A stretch of DNA of 64,000 nucleotides from contig QPGO01000006.1 in NCBI GenBank assembly GCA_008632985.1, positions 124,001 to 188,000 of the forward strand, given 5' to 3'. This stretch comes from Psammoneis japonica (taxonomy: Eukaryota). Within the stretch, counting starts at the first letter, position 1. Every line of letters starts with the position of its first letter. This document shows positions 1 to 64,000 of this stretch, piece after piece. The notes under the pieces are model-generated. The model saw nothing but the letters and a program-made list of their open reading frames with translations. It was not told the origin of the DNA and did not search any database. Position numbers and translations under genes: made by a program.

Positions 1-3000
1 AAAAAGATGCCACGTCGCAATGCTCATTTTTCCCTCACAAAATTCAACGCAAATTGAATCATGGCACCGCAAGTCCTTGCAACAACATGAGAGTGGTCCC
101 TTTGACGAGGTGGAAATCAGCAATGAAACAACGCTGGAGTCAGGAACTTTCAAGGAAGATGTTTTTGCAAACAAGTCTGTTGCAGCGCACCCCACCAGCA
201 TCTGACGAAAACAACAAAACACCCTTTTGGCGACGCCGCACGTTTGCCACCGGCAGACTCAACCGGTCCCACCGGCTGACTGATGGGTGCTCACTGGAAT
301 CAGCATGCAGCCCTGTGCACAAGCCACCGTGATAGATGAGTTTGAGAGTGCCGCCACAAAACAATGACAACGCAAAGCGACTTCTTCCCGAAGGACATGC
401 GACACAGTCCTGCCCTTGAAGAAAGCTAGAATGTCAGAAGCTGCACAATCACATCTCTAAAGAACAACAAAATGCCACAAGTTGGTGTCACAAATGTGTG
501 TGATCATGTGGTTTTGTTGGTCTGTCCATCGAACGATTTTTGATTTTGCAGGCTTGCATGGTTGAACTTCAACTTGCACAGATGCCCTGCAGAAATGTGC
601 ACAAAAACACACCAAAATCAAAATTTCAAAATCGTGAGGTGGAGAAGTGAAACCACTCTTTCTTCCCTGCACCATCTCGTGGCGACTCCAGCAGATTGTG
701 ACAACAATGACGATGATTGAAAATGTCGCTTGCATGTGTTGAATGTGCTGAGGAGCAAGAAAGAGTGCATCGTCACTCTCTGACTCCTTGTGGCCACAAA
801 ATTTGTCTTCACTGCATGGTTTGTTTGCCAGCAGAAAAGACATCCAAAAAAATAAAACCAAATCTGCTGCATTTACGGTGCTGTCACTCCTTTGCCAGCC
901 AAGCCGGCGCATTGTGGTCAATGCGTCTCGCACCATCCAAAAGAGAAATCATGAATCAGAAAAAAGTGAAGTCGATTGTGAATGCCCAGCTCCTGTCAAG
1001 AAAAAGAAAAAGAGGAACCCCACCAAGTCATGAATGTTGGAATGCCTCCGAGAGAAACAAAACGACGGTTTTTGGCACCAGCTGTGATTGCAGCGGATGG
1101 CCTGCCACTCACAGAGCAAGAGGTGGTTGAAACAGATGAGGATGGCAACATCCCACACACTCCAGTTGGACATGCAGCAGTCAACAGAAAAGGAGACACA
1201 GCTGCCGATGACAACCAAACCAAAATTGCTGTCGCAAACATCTTCAAGAACATGTCATCCGTGCTCTCACCTGTGGTTACAACAGGAAAGAGTGCAGAGC
1301 CAATGAGCCCAAAAAATGCACTCAATCACCTCATGTCAGAAGAAAACAGCACAGCCATGCTTCCATCTATTTTTGCTTTTGACGCCAATGGCACTGACAT
1401 GAATGCTTTCATGGAGACAATGAAGAAGCATGGGAGACAAGGCGACTCATCGGCATTGGCTGTGGGGATGATGACGGCTTTAATTGTGAGAGTTTCAAGT
1501 CAAAATGAGGTGGGGGCTGCCATCAAACGTGTGTCCAATGTTTTCACAACTCAAAAGAGATTCTGTCGTTGGAGATGCTCTTGCCAATTTCAAAGCAACA
1601 ACATCTGCATTGGCCACTGGCATTGCAAAGGCTTCTGAGTGCACTGCAGCCTGCCTTGAACCCAAGGCAAAATTGTTGGCACCTGAGGATGGGGCAATGC
1701 TGACAGCCGACAATGCAGAATTGAAAACAACACATGCTAAAGATGCAGGAGGGTTTGGCAGAATTCAAGGAAGATGCTGTGTTTTGAGTGCTCTGGGGGG
1801 GAAGACCTCAGTTGAGGAGCATTCAGCTGAGCCAGATTGGTCATTCCATTTGACCAATGTCAACAATGTTGTGCTCACTGGTCATGGAAAAGAAGCACAA
1901 CAGCCACATGCTGCGAAATCAGCTCATGTCTCGATTTTTGACATTGACAAAATTTGCACTGCTCACTGGAACAACAGAACAGCCAATTGACAGATGCAGC
2001 AGCATTGATGCAAAGCGCCAAAATCAAAACACACGAGCGCCAACGGCCTCGTTTCCACTTCTGGGGCCCACTGCTGGTGTTCGTCACACCAGAGAGCCGG
2101 GTCGTTGCCAGATGCTAGAAGTGTGATTGTTGAGTTGGTCATGCAAATCAGCGCAAATCACAAGCAACATCATCACTGCCAGATTTTTTTTTTGCTGCCG
2201 TCAGATGCTCAAGGGCGCACCCTTTTCTCCAGTGGTGACTTGCGATGGGAACATTGCTCATCCAGACAGAGGTTGGGGGTCCAATTCTTGGCATCCAACA
2301 CACAGCTGAGTTTGCACTTCTGTGATTTTTCAAGGCTCTCAACAATCAAATCTGGAGCAAGATCTTCTGTGCTTTGAACCCAATCATTGTTTTTCAACAC
2401 CGCGACCACCAGTCCAAACTGCACAACCAAAGCATCGCGATCACGAGAGCGGAGACCAACTTTTGGGATGGGATGTTTGTTCAAGCACGGCCTTCCAGAC
2501 TTTTCAGGGGCATGCACAGTTGAGCATGTCATCATTCATGGTTCACACCTGCCATCAATTGATGGCTCATTCTCTGCAGTGACTTGGGAACGGTCCATGG
2601 CGACCTTCAGTGATGACAAGCCAAAGCCTCTGGGCATCGCAAGGCTTGATCTTAAAGCTGCATGTTGGATCTGGGCATGTCAGAAAGTTTGGAATGCTTG
2701 GCCATTCCATGAAGCTTTGCACGGGATCGAGAATCATTGGCTTTTCTCTTTCGGAGGTCATCCGAGTCGAAAATCCCAATGCAATTTGGAGCGGCTGAAT
2801 GGCACCGATGCTTCAGTTCGGCAAATTTTGACAGAGTTGCAAACTGATGCTTCCTCAACCTTTCCCAAGCTGCCTTTTGCTCTTCTTTTGAAAGATTCAA
2901 CCACCAGTTCACTGCGTGCTGTCATTCGATGGCACAAGTCTGAGCTTGCTGGACCAAACAAAACAAGACAAATCGGAAAGGCATGATGAGACTCCTGATC

Positions 3001-3180
3001 TTTCTGCTGCCTTCCGCTGTTTGGCACTTTGAAGCTCTTGCGCAACAATTTCTGGTTCTTCCACTCAGCAGCATCTTCATTCTTTAGAGCATCTGGTGCA
3101 TCAGCTTCTGTGTGGGACAACTGGTGGTGTTGGGCAACCTTCAAATGTCTCGGTTTGATCAGGCTTGGCGGCAGCGCGTC
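1..3180. other. TpA-depleted, degenerate sequence (left flank of the Copia; contiguous with 8952 onward before insertion)
   Basis: Roughly a dozen TA in 3.2 kb; TG/CA-rich; Tyr-poor, Cys/His-rich ORFs. Removing the Copia rejoins the minus-strand frames 8952-9173 and 2758-3174 in frame (…IRDDA|LPPSLIKPRHLKVAQ…). Confidence 0.8.
3175..3180. repeat. Target-site duplication CGCGTC (partner at 8952-8957)
   Basis: Same hexamer immediately outside both LTR termini. Confidence 0.85.
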
Positions 3181-3484
3181 TGTCGCGGAACATGACTCAG
3201 GCGGGACTCAGATGATTGGGTCCCGTTCACGAATGAAGAGTCACGTGGTTTCTGGTCACAAGAATCACGGCGAACCGGGATGTTTGCGATCCAGGGACGA
3301 TGGTCCCCCGTGATGTTTGACGTGACGTTTGGACGTGTTACTTTGAGTTTGACAGGACTGTAATTCAGAAGAAGTAGAAAAGTAGATTATAATTTAGCGA
3401 GAGTGAGAAATGTGAAGACTATTAATTTTAGTTTTTTGTGCTACTGACAAGGTGTTAGTAGTATCGGCATCTGGTTGTCCAACA
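3181..3484 (+). repeat. 5' LTR (304 bp)
   Basis: Starts TG, ends CA; direct repeat of 8648-8951. Confidence 0.95.
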
Positions 3485-3543
3485 CGATATATATCGACAG
3501 TTTGTGGCAACACTACATTCGAGAGTAGTAAGTGAGAGAAGCG

Positions 3544-4743
3544 ATGAGCAAGGAAGAACAGACCTACGAGACTTCTTTGTCGTGGAGCGGCAAGAGAGAA
3601 GACTTCGAGAATTTTTTGGTGAAATTCGAGGCATTCGAGAGCGACCACGGTTGTGACGAAGCAACCGATGTGGATCTAGGAGATAAGCTTCTCACCAAGG
3701 CGGAATACGTGAATGGAAAGAAGAAAGTAACGCAAGCTAATGGTACAGAGACCGAAGAAGACCTCACAAAGGAGGATAAGAGGTTGTACAAGCTGAACGC
3801 GAAATCATTTTCGAAGATCATCCGTGCGTTGCCTGAAAACTTGATCAAGGCCTGCAAGAACCAAGGTGGACCCAAGAAGTCCGTTTATTTGATCAAGGAG
3901 TACCTCAAGAAACACTACTCGGAGCAGAATGTGGTAGATGATTACCAAAACCTCTACAAGAAGAGGTTGGAGCTAGAACCTGGAGAGTTCGAGATAGCGC
4001 TGTTCTATTTCAACGAGTTGGAGGATATTAACTCCAAGTTGGGAAAGATTGATGAAAAGTATCGCTTAGATGAGCTTCAGTTGAAGACTGATATCTATTC
4101 AAAAGTCCCGGATCAAGGTAACTGGTCCTCTTTCAAGTCCGAGTATCGCAAGGACGGCGCGATGGAGAACATTGCCTACAGTGCGTTCAAGCAGCACTAT
4201 GAACGGGAGTGGAAAGCTCATGGTCCACCAGGAGGATCTACTACATCTATAGATCGATCTTCTGGAGAGGATAAGACCCTAACTATGAAGGTACAGGGTA
4301 GCAAGTTTTTCCCGGGTAATTGTGGGAAGTGTGGCAAGAAAGGTCACAAGTCAAAATTTTGTCCTGACAAGAAGAACGCCAAGACGAAGAAATTCGATGG
4401 CGATTGCTTTTATTGCGGCAAGCATGGACATAGAGCGAGCGACTGCTTCAAGAAGAAGAAGGATGAAAGGAGAAAGACGAAGAAACGAACGAGGTTACAC
4501 TCGGAGTGTTCGATTCCGTCGACTTGGTTGAGGAGGGTAAGGACCCTATTCCAGACTCCTTCTTCGATACCTTCGATACTAAGCCTGCAGTTCGAGACGA
4601 TGAGTTCGAGAGAGAGCTTAAGAGGTGGGATACTCGGTCTGGACTGGGTTACGGCTACGATAGTAGCGGCGAACGCGCGCTGTCATGGTACGAATGGAGC
4701 GAGATGGCAGACGATGAGGACGAAGAAGACGATGACGGCATGA
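3544..4743 (+). CDS. gag: Copia Gag with two CCHC zinc knuckles (true frame probably shifts near 4480 into an acidic linker)
   Basis: CGKCGKKGHKSKFC and CFYCGKHGHRASDC; ATG at 3544; the downstream D/E-rich linker with IPPL..YDS repeats continues in other frames. Confidence 0.85.
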   Translation: MSKEEQTYETSLSWSGKREDFENFLVKFEAFESDHGCDEATDVDLGDKLLTKAEYVNGKKKVTQANGTETEEDLTKEDKRLYKLNAKSFSKIIRALPENLIKACKNQGGPKKSVYLIKEYLKKHYSEQNVVDDYQNLYKKRLELEPGEFEIALFYFNELEDINSKLGKIDEKYRLDELQLKTDIYSKVPDQGNWSSFKSEYRKDGAMENIAYSAFKQHYEREWKAHGPPGGSTTSIDRSSGEDKTLTMKVQGSKFFPGNCGKCGKKGHKSKFCPDKKNAKTKKFDGDCFYCGKHGHRASDCFKKKKDERRKTKKRTRLHSECSIPSTWLRRVRTLFQTPSSIPSILSLQFETMSSRESLRGGILGLDWVTATIVAANARCHGTNGARWQTMRTKKTMTA

Positions 4744-5158
4744 GTATGCCGGAGCTAGAAGGTCCTTTTGTTTCTGATAAGGTCGAGGATGAAAGTATCC
4801 CGCCCTTGGAACCGCGGTATGATTCGACAGCGATTCGGATGATGACGAGTCATTAGAGCTGATCGGCTCTCAACGCAAGTGCACCAACTGTGACGGGCCT
4901 GGACATGTCTATCGAGGCTATCGCACAACGAAGAAAGTTCAAGACGAGGACAAGGGAGACGAGGAAGACAGTATCCCGCCCTTAGTATCTCGTGGCGGTT
5001 ATGATAGCGACTCGAGCGATGACGAGTCGGTTGAATTCGAGGTTGTTTGCTCGTATTGCGGACAGCCTGGACACGAATTCTGCACTCCTTTCCAAGAGTT
5101 TTGGAATAACCCGGATGAAGAGAGCGATGATGACAGTATTCCGACTCTAGAGAGTGGT

Positions 5159-6585
5159 ATGGACTCGGATAGTGATTCAGAGTCCGAGTTTGATTACGAT
5201 TCGGACGACGACTATGACGAAATACTGATGTCCGGTGCGCAGTATGAACCAGAACGTGGCGGTGTAAGGCTACTATTGGACTCTGGCTCGACAGCACATA
5301 CTAAGAGGTCTGTTGAAGGGATGAGGAACCTCAAGGAAGTGAACAAAGTCATGAAGGACGCACACGACGGGAGTTCGGTAGCGAAGCTCCAAGGAGATTT
5401 TCCATTTACGCGTCAGAATGGGGACGGTACAGTAGTTATTACTGAGATGTACGTCCAGCCAAATTTTTCACATAACATTGTGAGTCTGACGAAGCTATTT
5501 GAGAAAAATTGCAAGCTGAGTCCGACGACTGATCCCAAACGAGCCATTGTTCTCGAGTGCCCTGATGGCACGGAATTAATTTTCGAAAAATCAGCGAAAG
5601 ATGGGCTGTTTTATATGGAAGTTGACTCACTGACGGATGTGTCCGAAATGACCGCAGACGTTTCCGATGGACAGAAATCTGGACAAAAAGAGTCGGACAA
5701 GAAAGTCCATGTTAACCGCGCACACATTTTGCTGAACCACATGGGAGAACGCGCGATGAAAATGGCGGCAGCAGATCTCGGTTGGAAATTGACCGGTATA
5801 CCGAAGACTTGCGAGTTCTGTGTCAAGGCAAAGGCTACAGCAAAGCCAACCGTGAAGGCTAGCGATAAGAAAGCGACCAAGCCTGGTCAGCGGCTCTACC
5901 TAGACACGTCAGGACCATACAAAGCGACGCGCGGCAAGAATCGATATCATGTGATGATAGTCGATCAACTTACAGATCGACTTTGGTCGATGTTCCAAGC
6001 GAAGAAAAATGGTTTTACGGACGATATCAAAGCTTTATTGACTAAGCTGAAGGGTCAGGGGTACCCAGTCGAGTTCTTACGGATCGACAACGCTCCGGAA
6101 TGGGGTGCACTCAAGCCAATTTGTGATGAGTATGGGATCACGATCGAGTATACCTCCCCTAATACTCCGCAGTTCAACGCGGCAGTCGAGAGAGCGTTCC
6201 CAACAGTGCGTAATATGGCATACGCGGTACTGAAAGCATCCGATTTCGACGACGCAGAGCAAAGTCGGCAATGGCGAATGCGCTGCAGGACTGCACTATC
6301 GTTCGTAACTTGGTCCCACGTGGGGACTGGAGCAATGCTTATGAACCATTTGGAGAAAAGCCACCCGTAAAAGCCGAAGACCTGGTAGAGTTTGGCGCAA
6401 AGGGGTGGATGGCCAAGAGAAACAAGATCAAGGCCAAGTTTCAAGATCGTGCCGAGGAGGTTCGTCGCGTAGGATACGCTGAGAATCACTCGAGCGATAC
6501 GTATATTGTTCAAAAGTTATCAAATCGTCGTTGTGTGTTGACACGCGACGTGGTATGGGAGTCTAAAGACGATATGATCACCTAG
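5159..6585 (+). CDS. pol: Copia Pol: aspartic protease, GAG-pre-integrase and integrase core (frameshift near 6275)
   Basis: LLLDSGSTAH protease motif; H..LNH...CEFC zinc finger; LYLD, LRIDN and VERAF integrase DDE motifs; C-terminal part in the 6271-6585 frame. Confidence 0.9.
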
Positions 6586-6841
6586 ACCCCGAGACAGTGG
6601 TCGAAAAGCAAACTCCGCGAGTAACTTGGGCGGACGACGCAAGACCGTCAACAGTGGTTGAAGAGATATCACGCCCCTCTCAGTCATCCGCAGACGACCC
6701 CGACTTTCATGATTCTCATTCACAAATTGAGGAGGGAGAAGAGAGTGCAACAGACGGCGAGGAATCAACGGATAGCGAAGAAAGTGACTCCGAGATGGGT
6801 GCGCCACCTGACGGACCAGGACAGACGGATAAGAATCAGCT

Positions 6842-8780
6842 GTGAATAGTCGATTGGAACGCGAGTTGAGCAAGCTGAGGACTTCTTATAACCCAGCTGG
6901 TCTCCCAAGCGACGACGAGGACGAGGTAGAAGCGGTGAATATGGTCGCAGGATATGTTGATCCGAAGAATGATCGCGAAGCGATGACAGGCGACGAAGCT
7001 GACGAGTGGTGGAAGGGTCTAGTCACAGAATACGATGGATTTTTCGACTTGAGAACTTGGATACTGGTCAAGGAAGCCGAATTGAAAGGTAAAAAGATAT
7101 CCAAGCCGCTATCAACGAAGAACGTCTACAAAAAGAAATTACACGCGATAACAAAAGAGGTGCGGTATCGCGTGCGCAACTGCATTCGGGGGTTCGATAT
7201 GATACCCGGAGTTCATTTCGATGAATCTTTTGCACCTACTCCGACGGATCATACTGTGAGACTCATATTGGCGATATCATTATGGATGCTGGAACAGTTG
7301 GAAGTCGATGATATCGACGAAGCCGAGAAGGAGTGGATTGTCGGGCATTTGTTCGATGTTGTGCAGGCATTTCTGAACTCAGAGATGACTGGACCACTGT
7401 ACATGTGCATCTTCCCCTATGTGGAAGGAGTATTGCGAATATAAAGGTTGGGAATACAACGAGAACGATCTTATTTTGCTCGGAAAGGCGCAATATGGGC
7501 AAGTCGATGCCGCGAAGCGCTGGATTGATATGTTTGTCGGAATCATGACTGAAAAGGGTGGCGTCGAGCTTAAACGAAGCAAGACTGACCCTTGTGTGTT
7601 GTACCGTCATGATGACAAGGGGCAATTGGAGATTATCATTTTGATTTATGTGGACGATGGTTTCATATGTGGGAGGCCGGAAGTCGTTAAGGAAGCCAAG
7701 GACTATTTGGCGAAGAGAGCTAAGATACTGGACATTGGACGAATCGACACTCATTTAGGAATTGATTATGAGTTGAAGAAAGACGAACACGGTTGGTACT
7801 TCAAGTGCAGTATGCGCAAGTACGTGGAAAAGATGGTTGCGGAATACGAACAACGCTTCAACAAGACACTTAAGGATTACGAGACACCTGGGGAGCCAGG
7901 GAAGATATTGATGAAGGCGGACGAAGACCATGAGCCGGTCGAGCAAAACGGATACCGAGCCTTCGTCGGAAAGATCCTATATGCGATGTTGAAGGTCTTA
8001 CCTGATTGCGCGAATGCGATTAGAGCGTTGACAATGCATTTGACGAATCCAACTAAGGATCACTGGCACGCGCTGGACAGACTTATGGGACATCTGAAAT
8101 TTCACTATCAGCCGTTGAAGTTGAGGTCACCTTTGGAATTAAGGAGCATAGGGATATTCGACGCTGAGTGGGGGACGGACAAGAATGACAGAAAGAGCAT
8201 TTCGAGTGACATTTCCACACTGGGCGGTACGTCGTTAACTAATTGGCAATCGAAGAAGCAGACCTCTGTGGCGCTGAGCAGTTGTGAAAGTGAGACCATA
8301 GCGGGCACGGCGTGCGCGCAGAGCATACAATTCCAGAATCATTTATTGGAAGAGCTGGTAGGTACGGACATGTTGAAGATGCCGAGTTATGCGTACGGAG
8401 ACAACGCCGCATCACTGTTTCTGGCTGTTAACAACCAAGTGGGACAGCGGACGAAACACATTCACATTCGTGATAGATATTTGGGCGAGTTGGTTCAACG
8501 TGGAGAAATTGAACCACGCCATGTCAGTACGGAGAAGAACCCGGCAGATGTCAACACCAAGAACGCGAAGATCGAAACGCACAAGAGACTAGCTCAGAAC
8601 CTGTATGACGGATTCGTGATGGTTGAACCGGAACCAATCAAGGAGGGTGTCGCGGAACATGACTCAGGCGGGACTCAGATGATTGGGTCCCGTTCACGAA
8701 TGAAGAGTCACGTGGTTTCTGGTCACAAGAATCACGGCGAACCGGGATGTTTGCGATCCAGGGACGATGGTCCCCCGTGA
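6842..8780 (+). CDS. pol: Copia Pol: reverse transcriptase (RVT_2) and RNase H (frameshift near 7410)
   Basis: RGFDMIPGVHFDESFAP, DVVQAFLN, KAQYGQVDAAKRW, IYVDD; RNase H motifs WQSKKQTSVALSSCESE and RTKHIHIR. Confidence 0.92.
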
Positions 8781-8951
8781 TGTTTGACGTGACGTTTGGA
8801 CGTGTTACTTTGAGTTTGACAGGACTGTAATTCAGAAGAAGTAGAAAAGTAGATTATAATTTAGCGAGAGTGAGAAATGTGAAGACTGTTAATTTTAGTT
8901 TTTTGTGCCACTGACAAGGTGTTAGCAGTGTCGGCATCTGGTTGTCCAACA
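8648..8951 (+). repeat. 3' LTR (304 bp)
   Basis: Identical to 3181-3484 except at 8888, 8909, 8926 and 8930; preceded by the purine run AAGGAGGG (8640-8647). Confidence 0.95.
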
Positions 8952-11900
8952 CGCGTCATCGCGGATCATCGGTTCAAGGTTTTCTCCCCAAATGACCCCC
9001 TTTCTGCTTGGGGAGGATGGCCAATTCTCCATTGCCATGATTGAGGAATGTGAGGTGAGACCCAAGCACCACCGCTTGAAGATGACTGGCGTGTCTGCCC
9101 TTTTGGGGGGACACTCATTGCTGCCAGAAGGAGAGGATCCAGTCCACCAGTTGTGACACACACAAGGGCACACTTGAGTTTGAGGAGTTCATGGAGTTGG
9201 CTCATTGCAAGGAATCATGGGAAGGAAAGTTGAGGTTCATCTCTTCTTCTTTCCTGATCCCCTTGCATGGACTCCTCTTCATTGTAAATGATCTCCAACT
9301 CAATGGCAATCTTTTGCGCTGTAGAGTCATTTGCGCAGAAATGTGTGGAACAGTGCCAAGACAATTGTTGAAAAGTCTGTCTGTCTGTCCTCAGTGAATT
9401 TTAACTTTGCGAAAAATGGACTTGACTGTTTTCTGATCAGGTGCATTTTTCTTCAACACATTTGCAAAAATGCACCTGACCCAACAACAGTCAAGTCTGT
9501 TTTTGCACAAATTGTGTGAACATGACAGTTTCAGTGCAAAAACATGCAGATTCTGCAGGTGTCCACAATTGTTTCATGCTTTTTACGTCACGGGTCATTT
9601 TCGAAAGATTCCCATTGGTCAAGGTCAGTGCAGGCAGCAAGTGCATTGTTTTCAAGGAGGGCACAACCAAACATGGTGGAGAAACCTGCAGCATGCAACA
9701 GGACAAGTCATGGAGGACAAGCACCCATGTGGGCATGTGGGCCACATGCCCGCATGTGATGCTGATTGCACAGTTGACCACTCAAGGATCTGTGTGGATC
9801 AAAGCCATGATGACTTGCACATGTCAGCAAAGCACCTTCCAGCATTTGCATGGGAGGATGTGACCAGAGAGGTGGGGCATGTTGGCAAGAAATTCACAGA
9901 CATTTTCAAGAATGCAGAGCTCAAGGGGATGTTCAGAACTTCAGTTTGAGGTGTGCCAGATGACTGGGAACTGGCTGATGAAGCAACACAAGGCAGATGA
10001 TTTGGAAAAACAACTCAAGAAACAAGGCAAGATGAAATTTGATGAAATGTTGAATGCTGCTGTGGCAGTGCAGCATGTGGTGGGCACAATCATGATGAAG
10101 GAGGGGAAAAGGAGGTGCTCTGACAATGTGGGGTCAACAAGGATGTTGAGTGGACAGCCCATGCAAAGTTGGAGATTCTGTGAGGGAAACAAACAAGTTG
10201 AGCCAACAGATGAGCAAAGAGTGCAAGGAGCAGGCACAGCTTGCAAAGAGTGGTGGGCAGAGGCAGGAGGAGGAGGAGGCTTTGTCAGCTGACCCAGCTG
10301 AAAAGCTCAAAGGAAGTGACAATGCAGAAGAGGTGGCAGAAGCATTTGACAAGGTGGCTGGGTCCAGAGAGGGCAAGTCAATGCAGAAGAAGAGCAAGAA
10401 GCCAAGCCAGGAGAATGCTGCCAGGAGAAAGAAAAGACCAAGAAGAAATTGAACAAAAACAGTGGTTGAATCAAACAGAGCTGGGACCCTGGAAACTGCA
10501 AAGTGGTTGTGAGCAAAAAACCTTGGAGAGGGAGAAAGAAGCTGCTGGTCTGTGCTGCAAAGCTTGGAGCGGTCCAGCCATGTCAGCCAAAGGAAGTGCA
10601 TTTTTGGTGCTGACAAATTGAACTGCAAAGGACCCAGATGCTTGCTGAGTGCCCAGAAAGTCAGTCAAGAGGGGGATTCCACCAGGAACAAAGCCACCTC
10701 CACACTCAAACTTGAGCATGAAATTAAAAAGAATCTGGGAGAGACCAGAGCAAATTGAGTCCATGCAGTTGCAGCCATCCTTGAACATCAGGCACAAGCC
10801 CCCACAAGCTCAACATGCCTGCCCTGGGAAAAGCAGCAAGAGTTTGAAAGAAAACTTAAGTGGCTTGTTGAGGCAGACACAAGCTGCCCAAAATGAGCTC
10901 AATCTTTGTGCAGAGGGGGTCAACAAGTGACAGATTCTGAAGGGCCCTCTTGAGTTGGACTCTTTGCTGAGCAGCTGTGTGTCTCACTTTCTTCATTTGC
11001 AAACATCTGAGATGAAACATTGGATGCTTCAAATGATGTGACAACATCACATTTGTTGAAGCATCAGGCAGGGAGAAGACATCCGCGATGCTCTTCTGCT
11101 TCATTTGGGCATTCATTGCCAGCAGCAAACCATCAATGACTTCATGACATCTGTGTGAGCTTCACAAAATGTCTCATCAGCATTGATTTCATCACATGCC
11201 TCTCCAATCAACTTGACAACGGTGCTGGCAGTCCACAAATGGTCCAGTGCAATGGGCAGAGAGTGCACAATGACCATGTTGCATGACTCGCCATCATGTC
11301 AGCAGCATGTTCTGTCTTGAACTTGTTGTCTTTGTGCTTTGTTCTTGCCCAATTGTTGATGAACTGACAAAGCTGAAAACATGGTTCAGCAGTGTTTTCA
11401 TTCATTGTGGTCAGATGAGTCCTGACAGTCCAGAGCCACTCTCCTCTGGATCTCTTTGTCATTTTTGCAGCTGACTCTCATGGCAACATCTGCCAGCAAT
11501 CAGCTTCTCACTTCCTTGTTCAGGCACCCAGAGAATTGGACCTTGTTCTCCCTGTCCACAACCACAAGCTGAACAATGTTGTCCACTAAAGTGCCAGTTG
11601 TTTGAATGCAAAGAGGCAGCTTCTGCTCCAGGGGAGGACAGCTGAGAGCCTGGCTGTCAACAAGTTTGACTGCAGAGACAACTGGGTTTGTGTGGTTGTT
11701 CTGTCTAGAGTGACAACAAGAAAGGGACTTTGTCTCAGGAAGAAGCTTGATGACAGGAAGACAAAGGGCACATTGTTGGCATTGAATGAGTTCCTTGGTC
11801 ACTTCAGGAGAGCACAAGAGGGCCCCAAGAAGGCCATCAGGCTCCTGCTGCAAATGACTGTGCAAGGCATTGCAGCTGAAGATTGCGGTCATCAGACAAT

Positions 11901-28275: not shown

Positions 28276-28309
28276 GTGGAGCAAAAGCTGAGTGAGTGGA
28301 GCTGCTTAG

Positions 28310-34200: not shown

Positions 34201-34309
34201 GAAATGCGCATATCGCCATATCGTTCCAAACGAGTCCGAATAGGGCGGGATATTCGAGATGCTATCCAAGTATTTACTCAAAGCTCGCAAACAAATGTTC
34301 CTTGATATG

Positions 34310-48385: not shown

Positions 48386-48386
48386 T

Positions 48387-54305: not shown

Positions 54306-54774
54306 GTACCCGGGAAAATTAGAATGTCAGTTGGGAGGCAATGCAATCGAGACGTTAGTGAGTCTCGATTAGCATCGAGGGGATATATGTTATTAGTTAG
54401 ATTCGAGCAGAAAGTATAGTACAACATTACAATTATCGTTTGCTTATCTGCCATAGAGTGTTTGCCGCTTCGACTACCAATCCTAGCACACATTTTGTCG
54501 CTATCGCTCTCTCGAGACAGAGTAGAGCTAGCAGACTGGTGCTGGTAACGGTATCGTCTTCATAGTCCCTGCATTCCCCAGAGTCGGCTCTGTTCCAGTC
54601 GACGTCGCCTGGCTGTATTGCAAACGCAGACTCAGCACATCCGCCAAGGTATGTGCATAGACCCACAGCACACATTCCATCATCGTATTCTCGGCACCGC
54701 AATCCACAATTCCAAAGAACCGAGAATGGACCACACCACTTCTATGTCTACTGGATTCGTTGCTCCTCCTATTA

Positions 54775-56837
54775 TCATTCAACATCACTCCACAATGTCA
54801 ATTTACGTCTTCGACTGATACTATTCGCCATCAATTGTCCAATCGAATTGGCCGTCATGTTGCGTGTATCGACATCGTCAATCGCAACAATCAAATCATC
54901 TACCCGAATCACACCCACCAGTGGACTGTCGTCCTTGAGCGACATGACTTGGGGTCCATCCAGCGTGGTATCGACGACAATTCCCAATCGACCCGGTGGT
55001 GCATAGACATCTCGTTGTGCCTTGCCGGGTGGAATGTCGTGTTCGTCTTGAAAGGATGGTGCCGATAAGGAGCCGCCGGCGATAGTAGTACCCAACATGG
55101 TGGTTCCACTCGATATGGAACCAGGATCATATGTGGCCGCATCTTGAATACCGTCGTCGAGCGAATAGGCATACGTCAAGTCGCCTCCGCCCTTGCTGCT
55201 GTTTGCCAGATACGATCCATCGTTCCACGACGAGTCGCCACTGGATTTGGTTCGCTGTCGATACGAATAACTGCTGACTTGACTCTTGGGACTGGATTGA
55301 CCATCCTCCACGTAAGATAGATTGGAGGATCGAGCCGAACTGGGTGGTGCTTGTCGTCGTTGTGGTTGTTTGGATTTTTTCAGTGGAGTCCAAAAGGAAC
55401 TATCCAATTTCCTATTCCTGGAAGCAGCAGCAGCATTGGACGACGAACCCATGGATGTATTGACAGCAAGAGATGTGTTGTTGTTGGGACCCGTGCTTTT
55501 GAAATAGTTTCGTGGTCGAGATGTCGTTCTGGCATAACGATATCCCACGGCAAAGAGGCAACACACAACCACGGAACCCAAGACAATGGCAATAATCACT
55601 CCCGTTGAGAGTCCACTGTTTGAGGAAGAAGAATTTTCGCCATTGTTTTCGATATTGTTGGTTTCGTCTTGAATCACCACGGAATTGACGGAATGACGGT
55701 GGAAAAGTAATCATTGCCCGATTGCTGTAATAGCGAAATAAAGGCTGGACTCTGCACGGTAAAGACATTTCGTAATAGACGACTGTAATCCAGATCCTCC
55801 GATGCAGTTGCAAAGCCTTGTCGTGGACGAAAGTCACCCGTCGCATCCAATTGCACAGTCAATTGCTGCAAACCGGCACTACCACTGGCATCCACGTCGG
55901 TTGGCGTGGACACTTGTTGGTTGTACACTCGGATCACCTCCACACTCGAAACGGGTTGTTCCAACATGCTGAGCGCATTGGATAAAAAGGCTTGCGAAAT
56001 GAATCGAAATATTTCCAATGTATTGTCATTCATTGTGCCCGAAACGTACAGGAGATTGACCCCGACTGTGCCATTGACTGGAATGGCGGTGCCGCCCGTG
56101 GAGGATGGTATAGCAGTGGATGGTGGTATTGTAGAAGGGATCATTGTGGGTGACGTTGTGGTGGTGGTTGTCGTCGTTGGACTGCCGGTTGGCTCGGTGG
56201 TAACTATCGTACTGGTGGGCTGCTCGGAGGATAATGCCGTGATGGATGGTGCACTGGAAGGCCATGAAGTAGTAGTGATGCTGGGTGACAAGGTCAATTG
56301 GGCAGTCGGAGCAAGGCTACTTTCCATCATGGTTGGAAGAAACGTGGGAGTCGTAGTGGGAAGCAATGTGGTCAAAGAAGGACTTGCTGATGGACTCGTT
56401 GTTGGACTCGTGGTAGTGGCTGCTACGGTTGGAGAGCTGGTCGGTGTACTGGATGGTTGACTTGTTTGAATGCTGGAAGGTTGACTTGTTGGAACAGAGG
56501 TGGATGAAGCAACAGTTGAGGTGGGACTCGCTGTCGTCGAGGCACTTGGGCTCGGTGAAGGACTCACGGTAGTTGTAGTAGTATCAGCAGCGGTGGGTTC
56601 GGCGGTAGGTTCCATAGTTGTCGTAGGTGTGGATTCGAACGTTGGAAGAGGCGATGGTTCCAATGTAGCTGGAGTAATAACGGCAGAGGGAGCCTGTGAT
56701 ACTTGGGCCCAAACTGATGAATGGAACAATAATTGCATGATTGCAAACGCTCGCCATGGAGTCTTAATGTTGTTGTAGTGACGATTTCTTGTAGTAGCTC
56801 GTCGCTTATTGATGGGTACTTTGTGTTGCAGCGTCAT
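54775..56837 (-). CDS. Type I membrane protein: signal peptide, PT/S-rich stalk, TM helix and C-terminal PDZ-like domain (1-bp frameshift near 55695)
   Basis: PTxSP repeats; TM segment GVIIAIVLGSVVVCCLFAVG; DVYAPPGRLGIVVDTTLDGPQV...LIVAIDDVDTR. Copy 1 reads through the junction in one frame (FSTVTSVNSVMQDETNN), so the break is a single indel. Confidence 0.85.
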
Positions 56838-57585
56838 GTTTGCCCAATAACTTTCGCTGTCCTTTCTCGTATTTTGCTGCTACCTGTGCTGCTGACTAAG
56901 AATAGCTCCCTTTTTTATAGACACAAGCAAGTGCTGTTGGTGTTGAAGCTCCAACGTTTTATGTAAGTAGTTCCGTCAAATGCCGGCTCCACAATAACAA
57001 ATCACAGTGTACATGCCGAATGTGGCGCGATCGTGCTTTTTCCGTGAACGAACGTTGCGCGGTATTTTGTGATAACGACTCATAAGTAAAGAATATTAAA
57101 TGTATTCCAATCTGTAGCTACGAAATAGTTATATGTATCTTAATGTTTTATATTCAATATGAGAAGCAAGATTGGAAACTGACAATATATTATATTCATA
57201 TTTAAATTAATATATATTTTCTATGACTCCCATACCTGATAGTTTCTATCTCTTACAGTACGGTGTGCTAGCATCTCACATTTTTTAGTTAGTAGCGACA
57301 AGTAGCGAAGCCAAAGAATGTCATATAATGAACAGGGCCTAGAAACGTAGGGCCTTACAATCTCTCTAGCTACAAACTCTTGAACGATCATCGCAGTATC
57401 GGCGGTACACTAAAAGGTATCAATAGAGACGTGTGTGGTAGTAGTAGTAAGGTCGCTCTCGCTTGATCAAGAATACCGAAGACGCGACAAGTCTAGCCAA
57501 GATTCATCAAACGTTCAAAACATTCTCGTCAATTCAGTTCTCTAAATACAATATTACAATAGTCCCTACTTAGAGACAATGCTAC

Positions 57586-60101
57586 TCATGCAGAATGCCG
57601 GTACTCGGGTACAGCATCCTCTTGTTGTTGCTCGACCGCCTTGAGAGATCGTTCATAAAAGTCCAAGTACTGAAACATTTCTTCACCCGACAAGACTTGA
57701 TTTCGACTCGGTGCTGCCGGTTTACTATTCTTGCGCTCCGCCATGCGATCGCGAAACTTTTGCTTGACGCTGCTAATCTTTTCTTGATAGAGCGATTCAG
57801 CCAACTCTTCATCTTGCTGCGTAGTACGATTTTGCGAGGAATCGACAAACGAAGACGGACTGTGATGACCGCTATTGGCGGCAATGGCCTTGGCCAAAAT
57901 GACAGAATGCTCGCGTTCCGGAAAGACATGGGATGGTTCCGATTGCAATTCCAAGAGTCGTTGCTGTGTGTCATGAAACAAGATAACGAGTATAGTTAGA
58001 AACAGCCGTCATTCTCAATACATACATCAACCATCAATAATTCACAAAAAATTACTACACAGCAACTCACTTGCAACTCTTCCAATTCCCGTTCCTTTTC
58101 TTGCAAACTCTGTTGCGCTTGTTGCTTGGCCAGCATGGCTTCACGCGCCACCAATTCCGCCTTGATTTCCGCCCGTTGTGCGCGTCGTGCCAAGATTTGT
58201 TTTTCATAATCCTCAAAATCGGTCGAAATGTTGGAACTCTCCAGAGTAATCACGGACGACGGTGCTGCTTCCACGAGAGAATCTTCATTCTCCAACCGTA
58301 CCAACAAGGTTTCGTACTTGGCCACCAATTGTTCAATCCGATCCCGTACCAAATGAAAGGCACGTTCGGCGACAACCAATTGTTTCGACAAGGCCTTGAC
58401 TTGTTCCATGGAAGTCAAGTAGGTCATTTCCGCTTGTGTCATGATTCCGTGACTATCCGACATTATTTCTGGAAACTCTTCTTCTTGCTTCATGATTTCT
58501 TCCGCTTCAATTTGAAGAGCCGTCGCGTCAAAGAGTTCTCCCCGGAGTTGTACACACCGTTCATTGGTTAGTTTCAATAAAATGGATTGACAATCACCAA
58601 TGGTAAACATTTCAAATCCACGCATACACCGTGGTCCGAGTGACGGACACTTGTATTGCATAAAGTCCACATCGTCCATCCATTCCACCAATTCCAAATA
58701 AGCATGTTGTCCATCGTATCGTTCGACACAATAGTCACAGTTGGGACGTGTCAAACACGATGCCGTCACTACATCGCGTGGACTCGCACCATCTCTCCAT
58801 GCCTTGGCCACCAAGACGGCATCACGAATGCGTAGCGATGCTTGAACATGTGGTGTCAGCACCAAATCATCACACACCACCGTCCCACCACGTCTCTCCA
58901 ATGAGCGTTCCAAATCGGCATGCAATATACGACTTCGCATTTCCGACAAGGCAAAGGCGCGTTTGACATCGTGATGCGTGTTTTCCGTTACTTCCGAAAA
59001 ATATCGAAAGGCACGTACCAATTTCTTGGTGGCTTGTGGAGATACTTGATAGACACTCCAATCGACATCCTCCTCATCTTCTTCCGAAAAAGAGGATGAT
59101 TCACTACTCTCGGTTCTTTGTTGTTGCAATAGAGTAGAGGGAGACTCAAATGCGGGTAATTTGATAAAACCGTATTGATCCACTTCGGAATTGGTCAAGG
59201 TTTCATCGTATTCACGAGAGGTATGACGAGCATCAAAATCCACTTGACGGGTTTGAATCGAAACCAAACCCGAAGGCAACACGACAACATTCAATTGTTC
59301 TTCTTCGTCTTCCTCAAACGTGGTGTTTTCCTTTTCATCTTCGTATTCTTCATGATGTTCCTCCAAGACTCGTTGGGGTGGTACAAAGTCTGAATCCACG
59401 ATACCATCAAAGACATCCGATACAGTAGGCTTGGTATAGGTCGATGTGGCACGGGACGAGGAACAAAAACTATCCGATTCTACTTGATCCATCAAATTGG
59501 GAACTTGAAATTTTCCATAGAGAGGTGTGGAAAAGAGAGAATCATTCTTTTCGAGAGCTTCACGTGTAATGGTTGTTGTTGTTGGAGTTGGAAAAGATGT
59601 TTCCGAACCACCATAATGCGCCGGAGTTGGTTCCCAATTGTGACGCTTATCAAACAAATCCGTCATGGAAATTGAACTGCCATTGGCAATACTAGAGGAT
59701 GATGGTGGCGGTAGTGGTGCAGTACTAGTAGTAGTACTGCGCTGTTGTTGTTTTTGTCTTGTGTTGGTTCGTGCCGCTTGAGCTACAATTTCAGCCAGAG
59801 CAAAGTCTGCGGCATTTGCATTCGAGTAGACTTGTTCTGCTTCTTCTTGTTGTTGTTCTTGTTCATCTCGTACTAGATTGAGTTTGGAAGGAATCGGATG
59901 TTGTGAAATCCAGGATTGTACGTGTTGTGACGACGCCCGTTCCAAGTCATGTTCGAGATTGACACGAAAGTGACAAACACCACTGCCGCCTATCGAAGAC
60001 GCCGTGTCTTCAAAACTGGAACTCGCCGTTTGTACAATACGTCCACGTGTATCCATCGTTCCGGGCCATGCGACAAAAGACGACGAATGATCGGAAGACA
60101 C
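57586..60101 (-). CDS. Hypothetical coiled-coil protein (~802 aa), two exons with intron 57964-58070
   Basis: 677-codon exon ends ...ELEELQ before GTGAGT; acceptor CAG at 57964 joins QRLLELQ... in frame. Confidence 0.85.
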
Positions 60102-61072
60102 TGGAGACGATGGAATGTTGTTGTTGTGTTTTTGTTTTGTTGTTGCGACGAAGTATTACTCAACATGCTGGCCAGACGAGCAACGCGGACGAACTTTTTG
60201 TTGTTGTATTCTTCAGCAAAGGACGTCCTGTGGAAGTCTTCTTTTTGTTGCCTTGACGACGAAAGAAGGAACTTGTTGTTGTTGTTGTTGTAGTTGTACT
60301 ACCAACCATGCTGCTTTTACGAGTCTCCATGGTAAATAGAAAGAGAGAGGAGTGAAATGAGGTAGGTACAACACAAACAACACAGAGCGGGTGTGCGTGA
60401 TGAAATGACGCGGGTGGATGGATTTTGCAGTGCGTTGCGCCACGCTAAAAATCTAGGAGACATTGATATACATCCTCATCAACATATAAAACATTCCGAC
60501 ATTGGATGGCACTTTCTTAAAACCCGAAAATAACAATTCACAAATCGGACCTACCAAATGGCTTGACGGGACTTAAAGTACAAGACTGAGAGCATTCAAT
60601 TTTATTCAAATTCAAAGAACTATGAATCCTCATGAATAGTCGCGGCGGCGTCGCTACACACGACTTGTTCGATTTTTCATTGGCAGTACGAATGGTACGT
60701 GTCGTATCAAATTGCGTAGAAACTACACACAGCTGGGCGAGCATGCCTTTCCATTTTTTTTTTTCGAAAAAAATGACGAAAAAAAGTGAGCACAGCAACC
60801 GTGCCGTATGCTGGCTGTGCGCTGTGAATAATCGAGTAGTGAACGTCTGCATCTGTGTTTGTTGTGCGTTCTTCACATCACCAACATCAACAAGAACAGA
60901 ACGGGCGGACGCTTACGTATACATGCCAACACCATAAAATGCAATATGGGTATGTACGCCCACATAATGTGTTCGAGAGCTTGTGCTGACTGCACACTAC
61001 TGTTGTTTTAACGGGGGTCTCACACAATTATTTCTTCTCTCATTTGTTTCTTACGATTTAGGAACAGCGACC

Positions 61073-62605
61073 ATGCGCAAATCCCTCGTATCCAGATTGC
61101 TACTAGCAGCCTTCATTCTAACATTATTTGTCATTTGGAAAAGCAACCTCGTACATCATCATCATATTGAGGTGACTCATCATTATGTCATGCAAGAAAA
61201 CAACAATCGCAAATTAGCACTCCAATATTACGACAGTACCGAGCAAGCGGATTCTCGTTTGACACGATTTCCATCTGTCCAAGAACGAATTCAACTCTAC
61301 ATGAGTCACTGGTATTTACCTGCCTGTCATGATGCCAAGAAAGTTCAATATTATTACAAACAACAAAATCAAGCAGCACTCGTACCCTCTCTTGTTCTTC
61401 GAGAAGCAGCACAACAACAACAACGTCGTGTGCTGCAAATACAAGCAAATATGGATATACAAATGGATCGTGTTTTTTATGTCAATCCAATGAAAATAAA
61501 CACGTGTACTACAGAACAACAACATTCTACCAACGACAACAACAAAAGACATTGTATCGATGATCAACATCCATTGCGACCATTGTTACTGCCGTTGATG
61601 GACGAACAAAACAACAACAAGAGTAGTAGCATTCCATTATTGTTTCAATTTGGGAATTCCGGCGTGGCTCGAATCGACAATGAATTGAATGTGCGTTTGC
61701 CACTCTTTCAAAAGTTTCGTGTCTCCATGAGTGTGGATCAAGTACAACAAGTCGTCCACAACAATAAGGACGATTGTTGGAACCATATTGCCAATGACAA
61801 CGAGACGCAACCCATTCTTTGGAAACTCAACACGGAACGACATGACAAGGGATTGACCAATGTCTTTTTGCTCGATTTGGATTGGCACGCAAAAAAGAAT
61901 CAAACCGTCTTTCGTGGGGCCTTGACGGGACGAGATGTTACTACTGCTACTACTGCTGCCGACAAAGAAAACAACAATTCCACCACACAACAGAATGACG
62001 ACGTGTCCAGGTGTTTAGCCATGGATCGATGTCGCGTCGTTTACAAACATGCCAATTCGACTCTGGTGGATGCCAAACTGACAAGTACCGAAAATCTCGT
62101 AAGCAGCACCATTGACGGAGTATCCTTGGTATCGCCCAAAAAGATGCCCCTTTCGGAACTATTGCAATACAAAATGATTTTGATTCTCGAAGGTCATTCC
62201 GTTACGGTTGCTTTAAAATGGGCCCTCTTGTCCAAGAGCGTCGTTCTTATGCCACCTCCTCGCTACACGTCGTGGGCCATGGAGGAACGACTGGAAGCCT
62301 GGGTTCATTACGTTCCCATTGAAAATCTGGACGACGACATTGAAGTCAAGGTTCGTTGGGTACTGGATCACAACGACGAGGCACAACGGATTGCACAACG
62401 TGGATCGCTTTGGATCAAGGATTTGGTGTTTCATCCGGATGCAACCAAGGAGGATGAAGTGATCCATCAAGAAATTGTGCATCGATATCAGCAACATTTT
62501 GTGCAGTCGCCCTATCTGGATGACCGATTTGATTCCGGCCGTGCGCACGTGGAGTATAATGTGGACGAAGAATCACCATTTTCGTGGGCGGCAAATTGCT
62601 GTTAG
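61073..62605 (+). CDS. Glycosyltransferase family 90 (CAP10/POGLUT-like), type II membrane protein
   Basis: N-terminal TM anchor after MRKSLVSR; motifs VFRGALTG and YKMILILEG...LKWALLSKSVVLMPPP..TSWAMEE.L..WVHYVP. Confidence 0.88.
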   Translation: MRKSLVSRLLLAAFILTLFVIWKSNLVHHHHIEVTHHYVMQENNNRKLALQYYDSTEQADSRLTRFPSVQERIQLYMSHWYLPACHDAKKVQYYYKQQNQAALVPSLVLREAAQQQQRRVLQIQANMDIQMDRVFYVNPMKINTCTTEQQHSTNDNNKRHCIDDQHPLRPLLLPLMDEQNNNKSSSIPLLFQFGNSGVARIDNELNVRLPLFQKFRVSMSVDQVQQVVHNNKDDCWNHIANDNETQPILWKLNTERHDKGLTNVFLLDLDWHAKKNQTVFRGALTGRDVTTATTAADKENNNSTTQQNDDVSRCLAMDRCRVVYKHANSTLVDAKLTSTENLVSSTIDGVSLVSPKKMPLSELLQYKMILILEGHSVTVALKWALLSKSVVLMPPPRYTSWAMEERLEAWVHYVPIENLDDDIEVKVRWVLDHNDEAQRIAQRGSLWIKDLVFHPDATKEDEVIHQEIVHRYQQHFVQSPYLDDRFDSGRAHVEYNVDEESPFSWAANCC

Positions 62606-62699
62606 TTATGTCAACATATTTGGACGATTAACAGTAGTAAGCTTGATCAGTATAAACATGATTGAAACTATTCTTTTGTTTGTAAAACAAAATGGCCTT

Positions 62700-62885
62700 C
62701 CTTTTTCAGTTTGGTGATTCCGAAATTGCCCGACGAGCTGAATTTGCGTGTGCCTCTGTTCCAAAAGCTTCGCAAAGCCATGCGTTTGTCCGAATTGGAG
62801 AAGATGACTGAGAACAAAGACATGGCAACAAGAGCATGGTCAAGCCAAGAAGGGCACAGCTTGTGGCAAAGCATCCTTTGGACAG
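62700..62885 (+). pseudogene. Decayed GT90 paralog fragment at the start of a TpA-depleted domain running to the window end
   Basis: FQFGDSEIA / DELNLRVPLFQKLRKAM / QSILW versus FQFGNSGVA / NELNVRLPLFQKFRVSM / QPILW in the adjacent gene. Confidence 0.7.
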
Positions 62886-64000
62886 CCTCATTTCCACAGC
62901 TGGCCTGTGAGAAGTGCAGAGATGGGGGGGGGGGCAACAAAGCGCAACTTGCAACACCTCATGACCCTTCCAAAATGAGCTGGGTGTGTGGCAATGGAGA
63001 GCACAGTGCACCAAAGAAAGGCAACTTTGACAACATGTTGTCTCAGTTGCAGCAGCAGCTGTGCACACCTGGCAAATGTGGCCACCATGTTGTTGTGACA
63101 TAGCTGGGGCTTCAGACTCCTGCATGTGCTGCTGCCGGGTGACTTTTGTTGCAGTGCAGCAACCTCTGGTGTGTGCTCCTGTGTGTGTGGTGTCTCACAA
63201 TCTGACATTTTCACTTTGGTTTGGGAAACTGCTGCCTCTGGTGCATGTGTGTGAGAAGTTCTCAAGCAACATCACCTGGCAGGATGGCGGGAATGACAGA
63301 TGACAAAGCAAGGCAAAGGGGGGCCATGCAGGTGGGAAATGGGTGGTTTTTTTCAAAGGGGGGGGGTGAATGTGCTCTGGCTGTGTGAAACCAAGTTGTG
63401 CACAAAAATGACACTTGCGTGATTTTTGTGCAGTCTCTGACTTGCGACCAAGCTCTCACCACTGAGAGCAGGGTGCAAATCTCAGCATTTTGCAACACTG
63501 ACAAGACACACATCATGTTTTGCAGTGATGTCATTTTTGTGCTGTCCATGCTTTTCATTGTGACAAATTAGTTGCAACACAATGGATGATTTTCATCAAA
63601 AATGTTGAAGATTTGCACACACCAAATGTTTGCATGTCAACACAAGAAGTTGTTTGCTTGCAATGCTTTGTTGCAGGTGTTCTGCCTGTGTGGGAATCAC
63701 TGTTGCACAATCAGCATTCAGTCTGCTGAGGAATTTGTGGCACACACTCCATGAGGACTTGAACACCGCAAAAAAATTGTTTGACTGCCGATGCTCTGGA
63801 TGGCCACAAAAGCCCATCTGCTTGAGTGTTTTTCACATGGGAGCACTGTGTGCATGAAAGAACAGCCACACAGTTCATGCTCAAATGGCACATTTTCATT
63901 TTGTGCATCACTTGCAACTCAAGCACATCAGCAGCAAGTTGGGTGCTGAGCTCGCGAAGCACCGCAAAGCTCTGAGGGTCTGGAGGAGGTGCCACTGTGT

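Follow-up and report, generated by a model that had tools for sequence, protein, structure and literature searches.

The stretch considered here covers 64,000 nucleotides of the genome of the diatom Psammoneis japonica (GenBank assembly GCA_008632985.1, contig QPGO01000006.1, positions 124,001 to 188,000 of the forward strand) and is referred to below, at its full length, as the window. It consists of kilobase-scale blocks in which the dinucleotide TA is nearly absent, alternating with blocks of ordinary TA content that hold several open reading frames (ORFs), a young Ty1/copia retrotransposon and one of the three copies of a repeated sequence. Over the whole window, the observed-to-expected ratio (o/e) is 0.36 for TA, 1.40 for TG and 1.41 for CA. 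The blocks were called with a two-state hidden Markov model (HMM) run on the TA positions, which returned six low-TA blocks (about 33 of the 64 kb) with a TA o/e of 0.02–0.14, the blocks between them having 0.60–0.70. The alternation and its coordinates, first described in an initial annotation made from the letters alone, were borne out, except that the fourth low-TA block ends at about 47300–47460 and not at 46780. The blocks are as follows.

1–3338 by the HMM (1–3180 up to the copia edge), depleted block 1: TA o/e 0.054, TG 1.67, CA 1.61, CG 0.54
8924–14153 by the HMM (8954–14153 from the copia edge), depleted block 2, the most depleted: 10 TA in 5230 bp, TA o/e 0.029, CG 0.16
14154–16439, normal-TA island: TA o/e 0.60
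16440–25764, depleted block 3: TA o/e 0.085, CG o/e 0.59
25765–37731, normal-TA block: TA o/e 0.63; contains a PRCC-like ORF and the N at 32361
37732–47463, depleted block 4: TA o/e 0.138; contains copy A, repeat X' and the left part of copy B
47464–48657, partly spared island: the right part of copy B, with a PDZ-like ORF
48658–52960, depleted block 5: TA o/e 0.053, CG o/e 0.30; contains repeat X
52961–62683, normal-TA block: TA o/e 0.605, CG o/e 1.10; contains copy C and several ORFs, including GT90
62684–64000, depleted block 6: 2 TA in 1317 bp, TA o/e 0.023, CG 0.22; continues past the window end

In the depleted blocks TG (o/e 1.43–1.86) and CA (1.52–2.01) rise symmetrically, and CG falls to 0.16–0.78, as against 0.94–1.19 in the normal blocks. 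The G+C content is nearly equal, 0.48–0.51 in depleted and 0.45–0.48 in normal DNA. By mass balance against normal DNA, about 1296 TA and about 856 CG were lost (2152 together), which is close to the 1866 or so TG and CA gained. Of 128 non-overlapping 500-bp windows, 52 had a TA o/e below 0.15. First-order Markov simulations (n = 200) that kept the dinucleotide content gave 1.05 such windows on average and 5 at most, which excludes chance. The longest gap without TA, 1854 bp at 11706–13560, lies in block 2. The two-state view of the initial annotation held in that the TA o/e histogram is bimodal and not unimodal, with 43 windows at 0–0.1 and 20 at 0.6–0.7. It did not hold strictly, since 23 of the 128 windows fall at 0.2–0.5. 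The segment 47464–48385 is a true intermediate, 14 of its 49 TA sites being converted. In the ORF-poor DNA at 28300–36190, about 8 kb long, the TA o/e is 0.4–0.9.

The direction of the change can be read from repeated sequences that lie partly in depleted and partly in normal DNA.

38449–39403 and 41085–42984, copy A of a triplicated sequence of about 2.9 kb, in depleted block 4
46200–48385, copy B, its left part (to about 47320) in depleted block 4 and its right part in the spared island
52968–55835, copy C, which keeps its TAs, in a normal block
42987–45300 (or to 45242), repeat X', in depleted block 4
49826–52150, repeat X, an old paralogue of X', in depleted block 5

When the TA sites of copy C were aligned to copy A (n = 116), A had TG at 54, CA at 39, TA at 22 and TC at one, so that 93 of the 116 were converted. 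By another tally, 92 of 93 changed sites became TG or CA. Copy B was converted at 30 of 46 sites in its left part and at 14 of 49 in its right part (Fisher p = 4.5e-4), all 14 changed sites of the right part being TG or CA, while the background divergence was alike on both sides (6.9% and 4.2%). Among the sites converted in both A and B, the outcome was the same at 27 and opposite (TG in one, CA in the other) at 17. Such opposite outcomes can arise only from a TA ancestor, with each copy struck independently, and the aligned copies show that the change runs from TA to TG or CA. Between X and X', which are old paralogues, CA/TG doublets make up 46 of 163 adjacent double differences, by far the largest class, and a further 85 differences are of CG against TG or CA; indels and transversions also separate the two.

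The initial annotation had taken one copy for the parent and described it as largely spared. Copy C does keep its TAs and A and B have lost most of theirs, while the status of a parent is unproven: A sits inserted in X' relative to X and is itself split by an element of the hAT superfamily. Instead of a parent with two copies, A, B and C may represent independent insertions from a single mobile family. Many diverged relatives of them were found in a public sequencing run, X1 (20 kb compared, 712 contigs aligned, of which 178 fitted two places).

The change is highly specific for TA. Between A and C, A>G or T>C was found at 95 of 236 TA bases and at 32 of 1239 other A/T bases, which puts the excess rate at no less than about 16-fold in raw proportions, or about 31-fold once saturation is allowed for. 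The TG and CA outcomes are interleaved along the copies (runs test P = 0.90 for A, with 55 and 40 outcomes in 53 runs against 47.4 expected; P = 0.56 for B). This random alternation indicates that both strands were hit without strand patches, and strand-coherent patches were rejected by the tests on both copies.

The TAs that remain are unevenly distributed among flanking contexts. In depleted as against normal DNA, ATAT was found 0 and 124 times, GTAC 6 and 115, and ATAC with GTAT 6 and 216, whereas CTAA with TTAG was found 36 and 90 times, CTAG 15 and 40, and TTAA 22 and 64. An additive half-site model, in which the base 3' of the A determines how often the A of either strand is hit, gave 2.47 for TAT, 1.37 for TAC, 0.46 for TAG and 0.43 for TAA (R2 0.92). 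The converted sites of copy A follow the same order: 37 of 40 for RTAY, 27 of 30 for YTAY, 24 of 32 for RTAR and 5 of 14 for YTAR. At asymmetric sites, counted over A and both parts of B, the A before a pyrimidine was changed more often than the other, 46 times against 25. Judging from these counts, the preferred target is (R)TAY, and YTAR is resistant. Mutagenesis at WA of the polymerase-eta type was rejected, as the AA o/e is 1.22 in depleted and 1.09 in normal DNA and A>G after A is rare.

Loss of TA is accompanied by loss of CG. CpG depletion is confined to the TA-depleted blocks, the normal blocks not being depleted, and within depleted windows the two ratios are correlated (Spearman 0.59, n = 63). 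The loss of TA leads: in block 4 the TA o/e is 0.14 where that of CG is still 0.78. In the diatom Phaeodactylum, transposons are CG-methylated via DNMT5a, and young ones are de-repressed on its loss, according to the passages of PMC9998398. By analogy, the depleted blocks would be CpG-methylated silent chromatin. The process resembles the CpG decay of methylated transposons, caused by deamination of 5-methylcytosine (5mC), in its palindromic YpR target, its TG and CA products and its confinement to the same blocks, where the two depletions are correlated. It differs in that CpG decay is unable to remove TA and that the loss of TA is faster here.

Two mobile elements show when and where the process acted.

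3181–8953, plus strand, a young, near-intact Ty1/copia long terminal repeat (LTR) retrotransposon with zf-CCHC, integrase and RVT_2 domains
3181–3486 and 8648–8953, the copia LTRs, 306 bp, 98.7% identical
39404–41084, plus strand, a relic of about 1.7 kb of a hAT-superfamily DNA transposon, inserted in copy A, where it splits the copy of ORF354 (an orphan ORF described below)

The copia element has a TA o/e of 0.66 and a CG o/e of 1.19, and its pol region is spread over several frames (4823–6367, 6833–7441 and 7389–8777). It is flanked by a perfect six-base target-site duplication, CGCGTC. As this duplication lies in depleted DNA, copia was inserted into an already depleted block, and blocks 1 and 2 were once contiguous. 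Its LTRs differ at only four positions (8887, 8909, 8926 and 8929), each a TA in the 5' LTR and a TG or CA in the 3' LTR, and all four lie in the last 70 bp beside the depleted flank. The TAs that are kept in the end of the 3' LTR (8890, 8896 and 8923) are all in YTAR, the resistant context. By chance, four of 28 LTR TA sites would all fall among the terminal seven with a probability of 0.0017. The clustering at the edge indicates that the process acted after the insertion and reached a few tens of bp past the edge without entering the 5.7-kb newcomer.

The hAT relic retains an open frame at 39618–41141, which has homologues at E 1e-109 and, over 508 aa, not a single Tyr. Where Tyr stands in both homologues (11 columns), the relic has His in four, Cys in four, Val in two and a gap in one; His and Cys at conserved Tyr positions are what is left when TAY codons are turned into CAY or TGY. 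The family is large (2841 relatives at E 0.001 or better), and five members examined gave no Pfam hit save one weak sub-threshold match and no sequence match in the PDB. The AlphaFold model of the family (pLDDT 84.6) gave a match to the Hermes transposase (E 9e-10, about 570 columns), so that on the strength of this model the family looks like a hAT clade that has so far gone unannotated. A search for relatives of the relic in metagenome contigs gave 203 pattern matches, none of which was confirmed.

With the hAT relic inside copy A and copy A inside X', the depleted blocks appear to be nested old mobile DNA. The depleted half holds 169 of the 269 stop-to-stop frames of at least 90 aa in the window, and these frames overlap on both strands. 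Since TAA and TAG have been erased and TGA is the sole stop left, depleted DNA is full of long spurious frames. A Pfam scan of 131 of these 169 frames, namely those of at least 100 aa, returned three weak matches (E 0.006–0.008), all under the curated cut-offs. The same scan of 79 frames in normal DNA returned GT90 and one weak PDZ match and nothing else. No Pfam domain and no terminal repeats were found in the normal-TA island at 14154–16439. A 171-bp tandem repeat in two copies lies in depleted DNA at 17111–17454.

The ORFs of the normal and spared blocks are the following.

36191–37477, plus strand, PRCC-like ORF, the nearest Atlas clusters having PF10253 (PRCC) and Bacillariophyta as the commonest phylum
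47940–48509, minus strand, intact PDZ-like ORF in the right part of copy B, exactly where B has mostly escaped TA loss
53241–54305, plus strand, orphan ORF of 354 aa (ORF354) in copy C
54775–55452, minus strand, PDZ-like ORF in copy C
55674–56837, minus strand, ORF in the normal block 52961–62683
57996–60056, minus strand, ORF in the same normal block
61073–62605, plus strand, GT90 ORF with the Pfam domain Glyco_transf_90

All 120 listed hits with names for the GT90 ORF are diatoms, the best identity being 41%. Together with the clusters nearest to the PRCC-like ORF, these hits place the window in a diatom or a near relative, other than Bigelowiella, with proteins absent from the collection searched. 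No informative Atlas hit was obtained for the ORF at 57996–60056 (taken as 57999–60155). ORF354, which has further copies at 38726–39407 and 41086–41469 (in A) and at 46408–47464 (in B), had no homologue among 5.8 billion proteins. It may belong either to a mobile element or to a host family of genes. The proteins of the two PDZ-like ORFs are 94.6% identical, and their PDZ match is weak. Over the minus-strand ORF at 55674–56837, a strong plus-strand skew of G over C was noted at 56001–56500 (G 180–182, C 77 per 500 nt). Normal DNA immediately upstream of an ORF at 27367–28275 contains an 89-bp tandem repeat (26503–26851; 3.9 copies, 92% matches).

The edges of the blocks are sharp to about 100 bp or less. 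That they lie close to genes, as the initial annotation had it, was found again: the last normal TA (62683) follows the GT90 stop (62605) by 78 bp, the PRCC-like ORF ends (37477) 254 bp before the switch at 37731, and the ATG at 53241 comes 281 bp after the switch at 52960. Possible boundary elements were sought among tandem repeats, tRNA genes and Rfam families, and none lay at a boundary. Two short AT-rich stretches, at 25765–26100 and 56751–57250, have a G+C of 0.37–0.38 and the highest TA o/e of the window (about 1.0–1.2). The former directly adjoins the edge of a depleted block. Both may be promoter or boundary regions.

In the host ORFs beside depleted blocks, the TA o/e is 0.52 at codon phase 2-3 and 0.63 at phase 3-1, as against 0.02–0.14 in the depleted DNA next door. 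Loss of TA at these phases would be mostly synonymous. That TA is kept there speaks for exclusion from the process and not for selection at the protein level, and the regional targeting proposed in the initial annotation is thus preferred to a filter of selection.

Part of the sequence could be compared with the run X1, in which 72% of the sampled words of 46001–56000 were present. Five de novo contigs from X1 over 48224–53056 (621, 726, 1441, 1060 and 745 nt) matched the window without a base mismatch, the sole gap being one base in the 726-nt contig. These contigs cover 4.8 kb and span the switches at 48657 and 52960. The only N of the window, at 32361, is more than 5 kb from every switch. 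Since two switches are bridged without mismatch and the N is far from all of them, the edges are not assembly or polishing junctions, a coincidence that the initial annotation had named as evidence against its own reading. At 39606–41066, two contigs had 10 and 4 letters differing from the window. Of these 14 differences, 13 were of CG against TG or CA, of TA against CA, or of CA against TG, and they ran in both directions. Two-way differences fit alleles or very recent duplicates under the TA and CG processes, unlike miscalling in one direction. The TA-free DNA is real sequence and not a basecalling artefact. At 38603–38604, 40375–40376 and 40769–40770, CA in the window stood against TG in an X1 contig. 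This suggests that near-identical sequences (alleles or recent duplicates) resolved one former TA oppositely and that the process is still polymorphic in the sample.

Taken together, the process acted in place, after integration and after duplication, on both strands and recently. It was confined to regions, leaving the adjacent genes, the young copia and part of copy B largely untouched. As copia, copy C and the right part of B escaped, repetition is neither sufficient nor what sets the limits. Probably, kilobase-scale islands of old transposons and repeats are the target of a regional, TA-specific hypermutation. Within such an island, the A:T pairs of the palindrome 5'-TA-3' would be turned into G:C on either strand, giving TG or CA, and conversion would proceed until TA is nearly gone, CpG decaying more slowly to the same products. 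A heritably silenced, CpG-methylated state of chromatin may guide the mutator, and the effect would be an irreversible inactivation of mobile DNA. As for the chemistry, enzymatic deamination of adenine to hypoxanthine at TpA, which was proposed for the chlorarachniophyte Bigelowiella natans, is by analogy the leading candidate, though we stop short of calling it probable.

Several points weigh against this explanation. Guidance by silenced chromatin is drawn from the CpG decay and the contents of the blocks. The hAT relic is the only one positively identified as mobile in depleted DNA, where the 131 scanned frames gave no credible Pfam domain. Among 152 proteins related to the relic, none was without Tyr, the lowest contents being one Tyr in 183 aa and two in 302 aa, so that this screen gave no hint of the process outside the window's organism. 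Spread past an edge was seen at one junction and at four sites only, and at the junction of copy C there was no spread, all seven TAs of the first 90 bp being intact. Copy C may just have been inserted later than A and B, and this possibility weakens the view that it was spared at equal age. The run X1 may be the source sample of the window, and its platform is not on record. Finally, ADAR and fungal mRNA editing favour UAG; the TAY preference is unlike this and does not favour enzymes of those kinds.

Other explanations of the TA loss differ in what they make of the same observations. An enzyme might modify the thymine of TpA in silenced DNA, yielding for instance 5-hydroxymethyluracil (5hmU) or a derivative, T to C at TpA being the mutational shadow of the mark. 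We know of no mark of the 5hmU type in diatoms. 5hmU is weakly miscoding, and dinoflagellates, as alveolates, are grouped with stramenopiles and rhizarians in SAR. A palindromic target hit equally on both strands suits a symmetric mark copied at replication; such a mark would explain heritable domains, sharp edges and slow spread, and the loss of TA does co-occur with CpG decay. Moreover, A>G on one strand is T>C on the other, which sequence cannot tell apart. In dinoflagellates, T is replaced by 5hmU preferentially at TA and TC; the mark is concentrated in repeats, shows overlap with 5mC and has a silencing effect on transposons (PMC11572971). The likeness to the window thus extends to TA preference, repeats, transposon silencing and 5mC overlap; however, the dinoflagellate mark is a modification and not a sequence change, and the passages of that source describe no shadow of T to C. 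Unlike the dinoflagellate preference for TA and TC, TC is not depleted here (o/e 1.10 in depleted and 1.09 in normal DNA), and the authors of the B. natans study, in its relevant passages, favour adenine deamination (10.64898/2026.01.13.699255). We consider such a mark improbable. Regional targeting might also be absent altogether, a genome-wide bias destroying every neutral TA and the normal DNA being young or selected. Copia is indeed very young, copy C is possibly a recent insertion, several switches (3181, 8953 and 52968) are insertion junctions, and the oldest-looking blocks, lowest in CG, are also the poorest in TA. Yet this is very unlikely in view of copy B, converted to 65% on one side and 29% on the other at a background divergence of 6.9% and 4.2%, of the four LTR changes clustered at the depleted edge, of the TA kept at synonymous phases in host ORFs and of the TA o/e of the ORF-poor DNA at 28300–36190; in B. 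natans, according to the passages of the same preprint, the process was directly shown to be local (10.64898/2026.01.13.699255).

An origin in assembly, basecalling or polishing, with modified bases of heterochromatin misread as G or C in long reads, deserves mention since modified bases cause systematic long-read errors. Both TA and CG turn into TG and CA, an outcome that could arise from miscalling of modified A or T and of 5mC, and the uncertain standing of X1, possibly the same sample and of a platform not on record, leaves some room for it. It is nevertheless scarcely credible, because five contigs assembled de novo from X1 alone agree without base mismatch and bridge two switches, the differences between window and X1 run both ways, and the old paralogues also differ by indels and transversions. 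In addition, resequenced mutation-accumulation lines of B. natans gave the same signature, as far as the preprint's passages describe it (10.64898/2026.01.13.699255). Hardly any weight is given to mutation triggered by homology, as in the repeat-induced point mutation (RIP) of fungi, or to reverse transcription of transposon RNA after A-to-I editing. In favour of such readings, most of the affected DNA is repeated. RIP acts mainly at CpA and creates TpA; it makes TA from CA and TG, the reverse of the change in the window. It consists of C to T changes in repeats, as summarized in the B. natans preprint (10.64898/2026.01.13.699255), and some diatoms encode DNMT4, possibly related to the fungal RID, according to the passages of PMC9998398. 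What the window shares with RIP are irreversible, dinucleotide-specific transitions of a defence-like kind in kilobase-scale domains over transposons. RIP, however, depends on enzymes of the RID/DNMT4 type, acts before meiosis and is triggered by homology, hitting duplicated partners along the whole of their homology, whereas here the limits follow regions and repeats escape (copia, copy C and the right part of B). The initial annotation had likewise set the window apart from a RIP-like hitting of all homologous partners, and this distinction stands: TA is destroyed and not made, copia and C escape, and B is heavily converted along only part of its length. Editing of RNA gains from the preference of ADAR-type enzymes for a 5' U, mentioned in the same preprint (10.64898/2026.01.13.699255). 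Editing of a single strand would give one outcome, whereas TG and CA are interleaved on one molecule, and a DNA transposon relic and LTR sites in place are affected as well.

TpA-specific hypermutation of nuclear DNA is known from B. natans, for which the following is taken from passages of the preprint of Mettrop et al. (bioRxiv 10.64898/2026.01.13.699255). In mutation-accumulation lines, 231 of 302 nuclear point mutations fell in two integrated viral regions, where all GC-biased mutations were at TpA and gave TpG or CpA. The rate was about 6e-7 per site per generation, about 1000-fold over background, and not all of the lines showed it. There are 124 clusters in the genome that are poor in TpA and rich in CpA and TpG, defined by a Rho of at most 0.43; transposon domains, viral domains and unannotated ORFs are over-represented in them. 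A region of nucleocytoplasmic large DNA virus origin has a Rho of 0.45 as a whole. The authors propose an adenine deaminase like ADAT2/3.

In both organisms only TpA is changed, to TpG or CpA, and the change is regional; a single-copy target in B. natans shows that repetition is not required. The lineages differ, a stramenopile here and a rhizarian there, as do the targets, which are old islands of transposons and repeats here and a giant-virus or virophage insert there. The window is near saturation (o/e 0.02–0.14 over about half of it) compared with a Rho of at most 0.43 in the clusters and 0.45 in the viral region of B. natans, where the rate was measured; in the diatom it follows indirectly. 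The window adds the (R)TAY preference, the coupled CpG decay and the edges of about 100 bp, none of which appears in the main-text passages on B. natans, which lack 'diatom', 'flanking', 'CpG' and 'boundar'. Literature searches found no report of TA depletion or TpA hypermutation in diatoms. The window is best read as a second and much more advanced case of TpA hypermutation, acting regionally on mobile DNA that is presumably silenced.

Hypermutation directed at TpA had otherwise been reported once, in the 2026 preprint on the rhizarian alga. Its presence in a second, distant lineage makes a quirk of a single species unlikely and renders a comparative gene search feasible. Any mechanism must explain the specificity for TA and (R)TAY, the action on both strands, the coupling to CpG, the edges of about 100 bp and the escape of a young insertion inside the target. 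A natural enzyme turning A:T into G:C on chromosomes would be of interest to the base-editing field. For annotation, gene predictors would over-call in TA-free DNA, where TGA is the only stop. Tentatively, and with considerable doubt, diatoms and chlorarachniophytes may share an old heritable defence, in which a TpA-specific DNA adenine deaminase preferring (R)TAY would be recruited to CpG-methylated silenced chromatin and would erase TA in domains that are copied at replication and advance outward over distances under about 100 bp. On this hypothesis, the enzyme should emerge from comparing gene content between species that have TA-free domains and species that lack them, and mobile DNA, deprived of Tyr codons, TATA-like elements and the stops TAA and TAG, would be permanently disabled.

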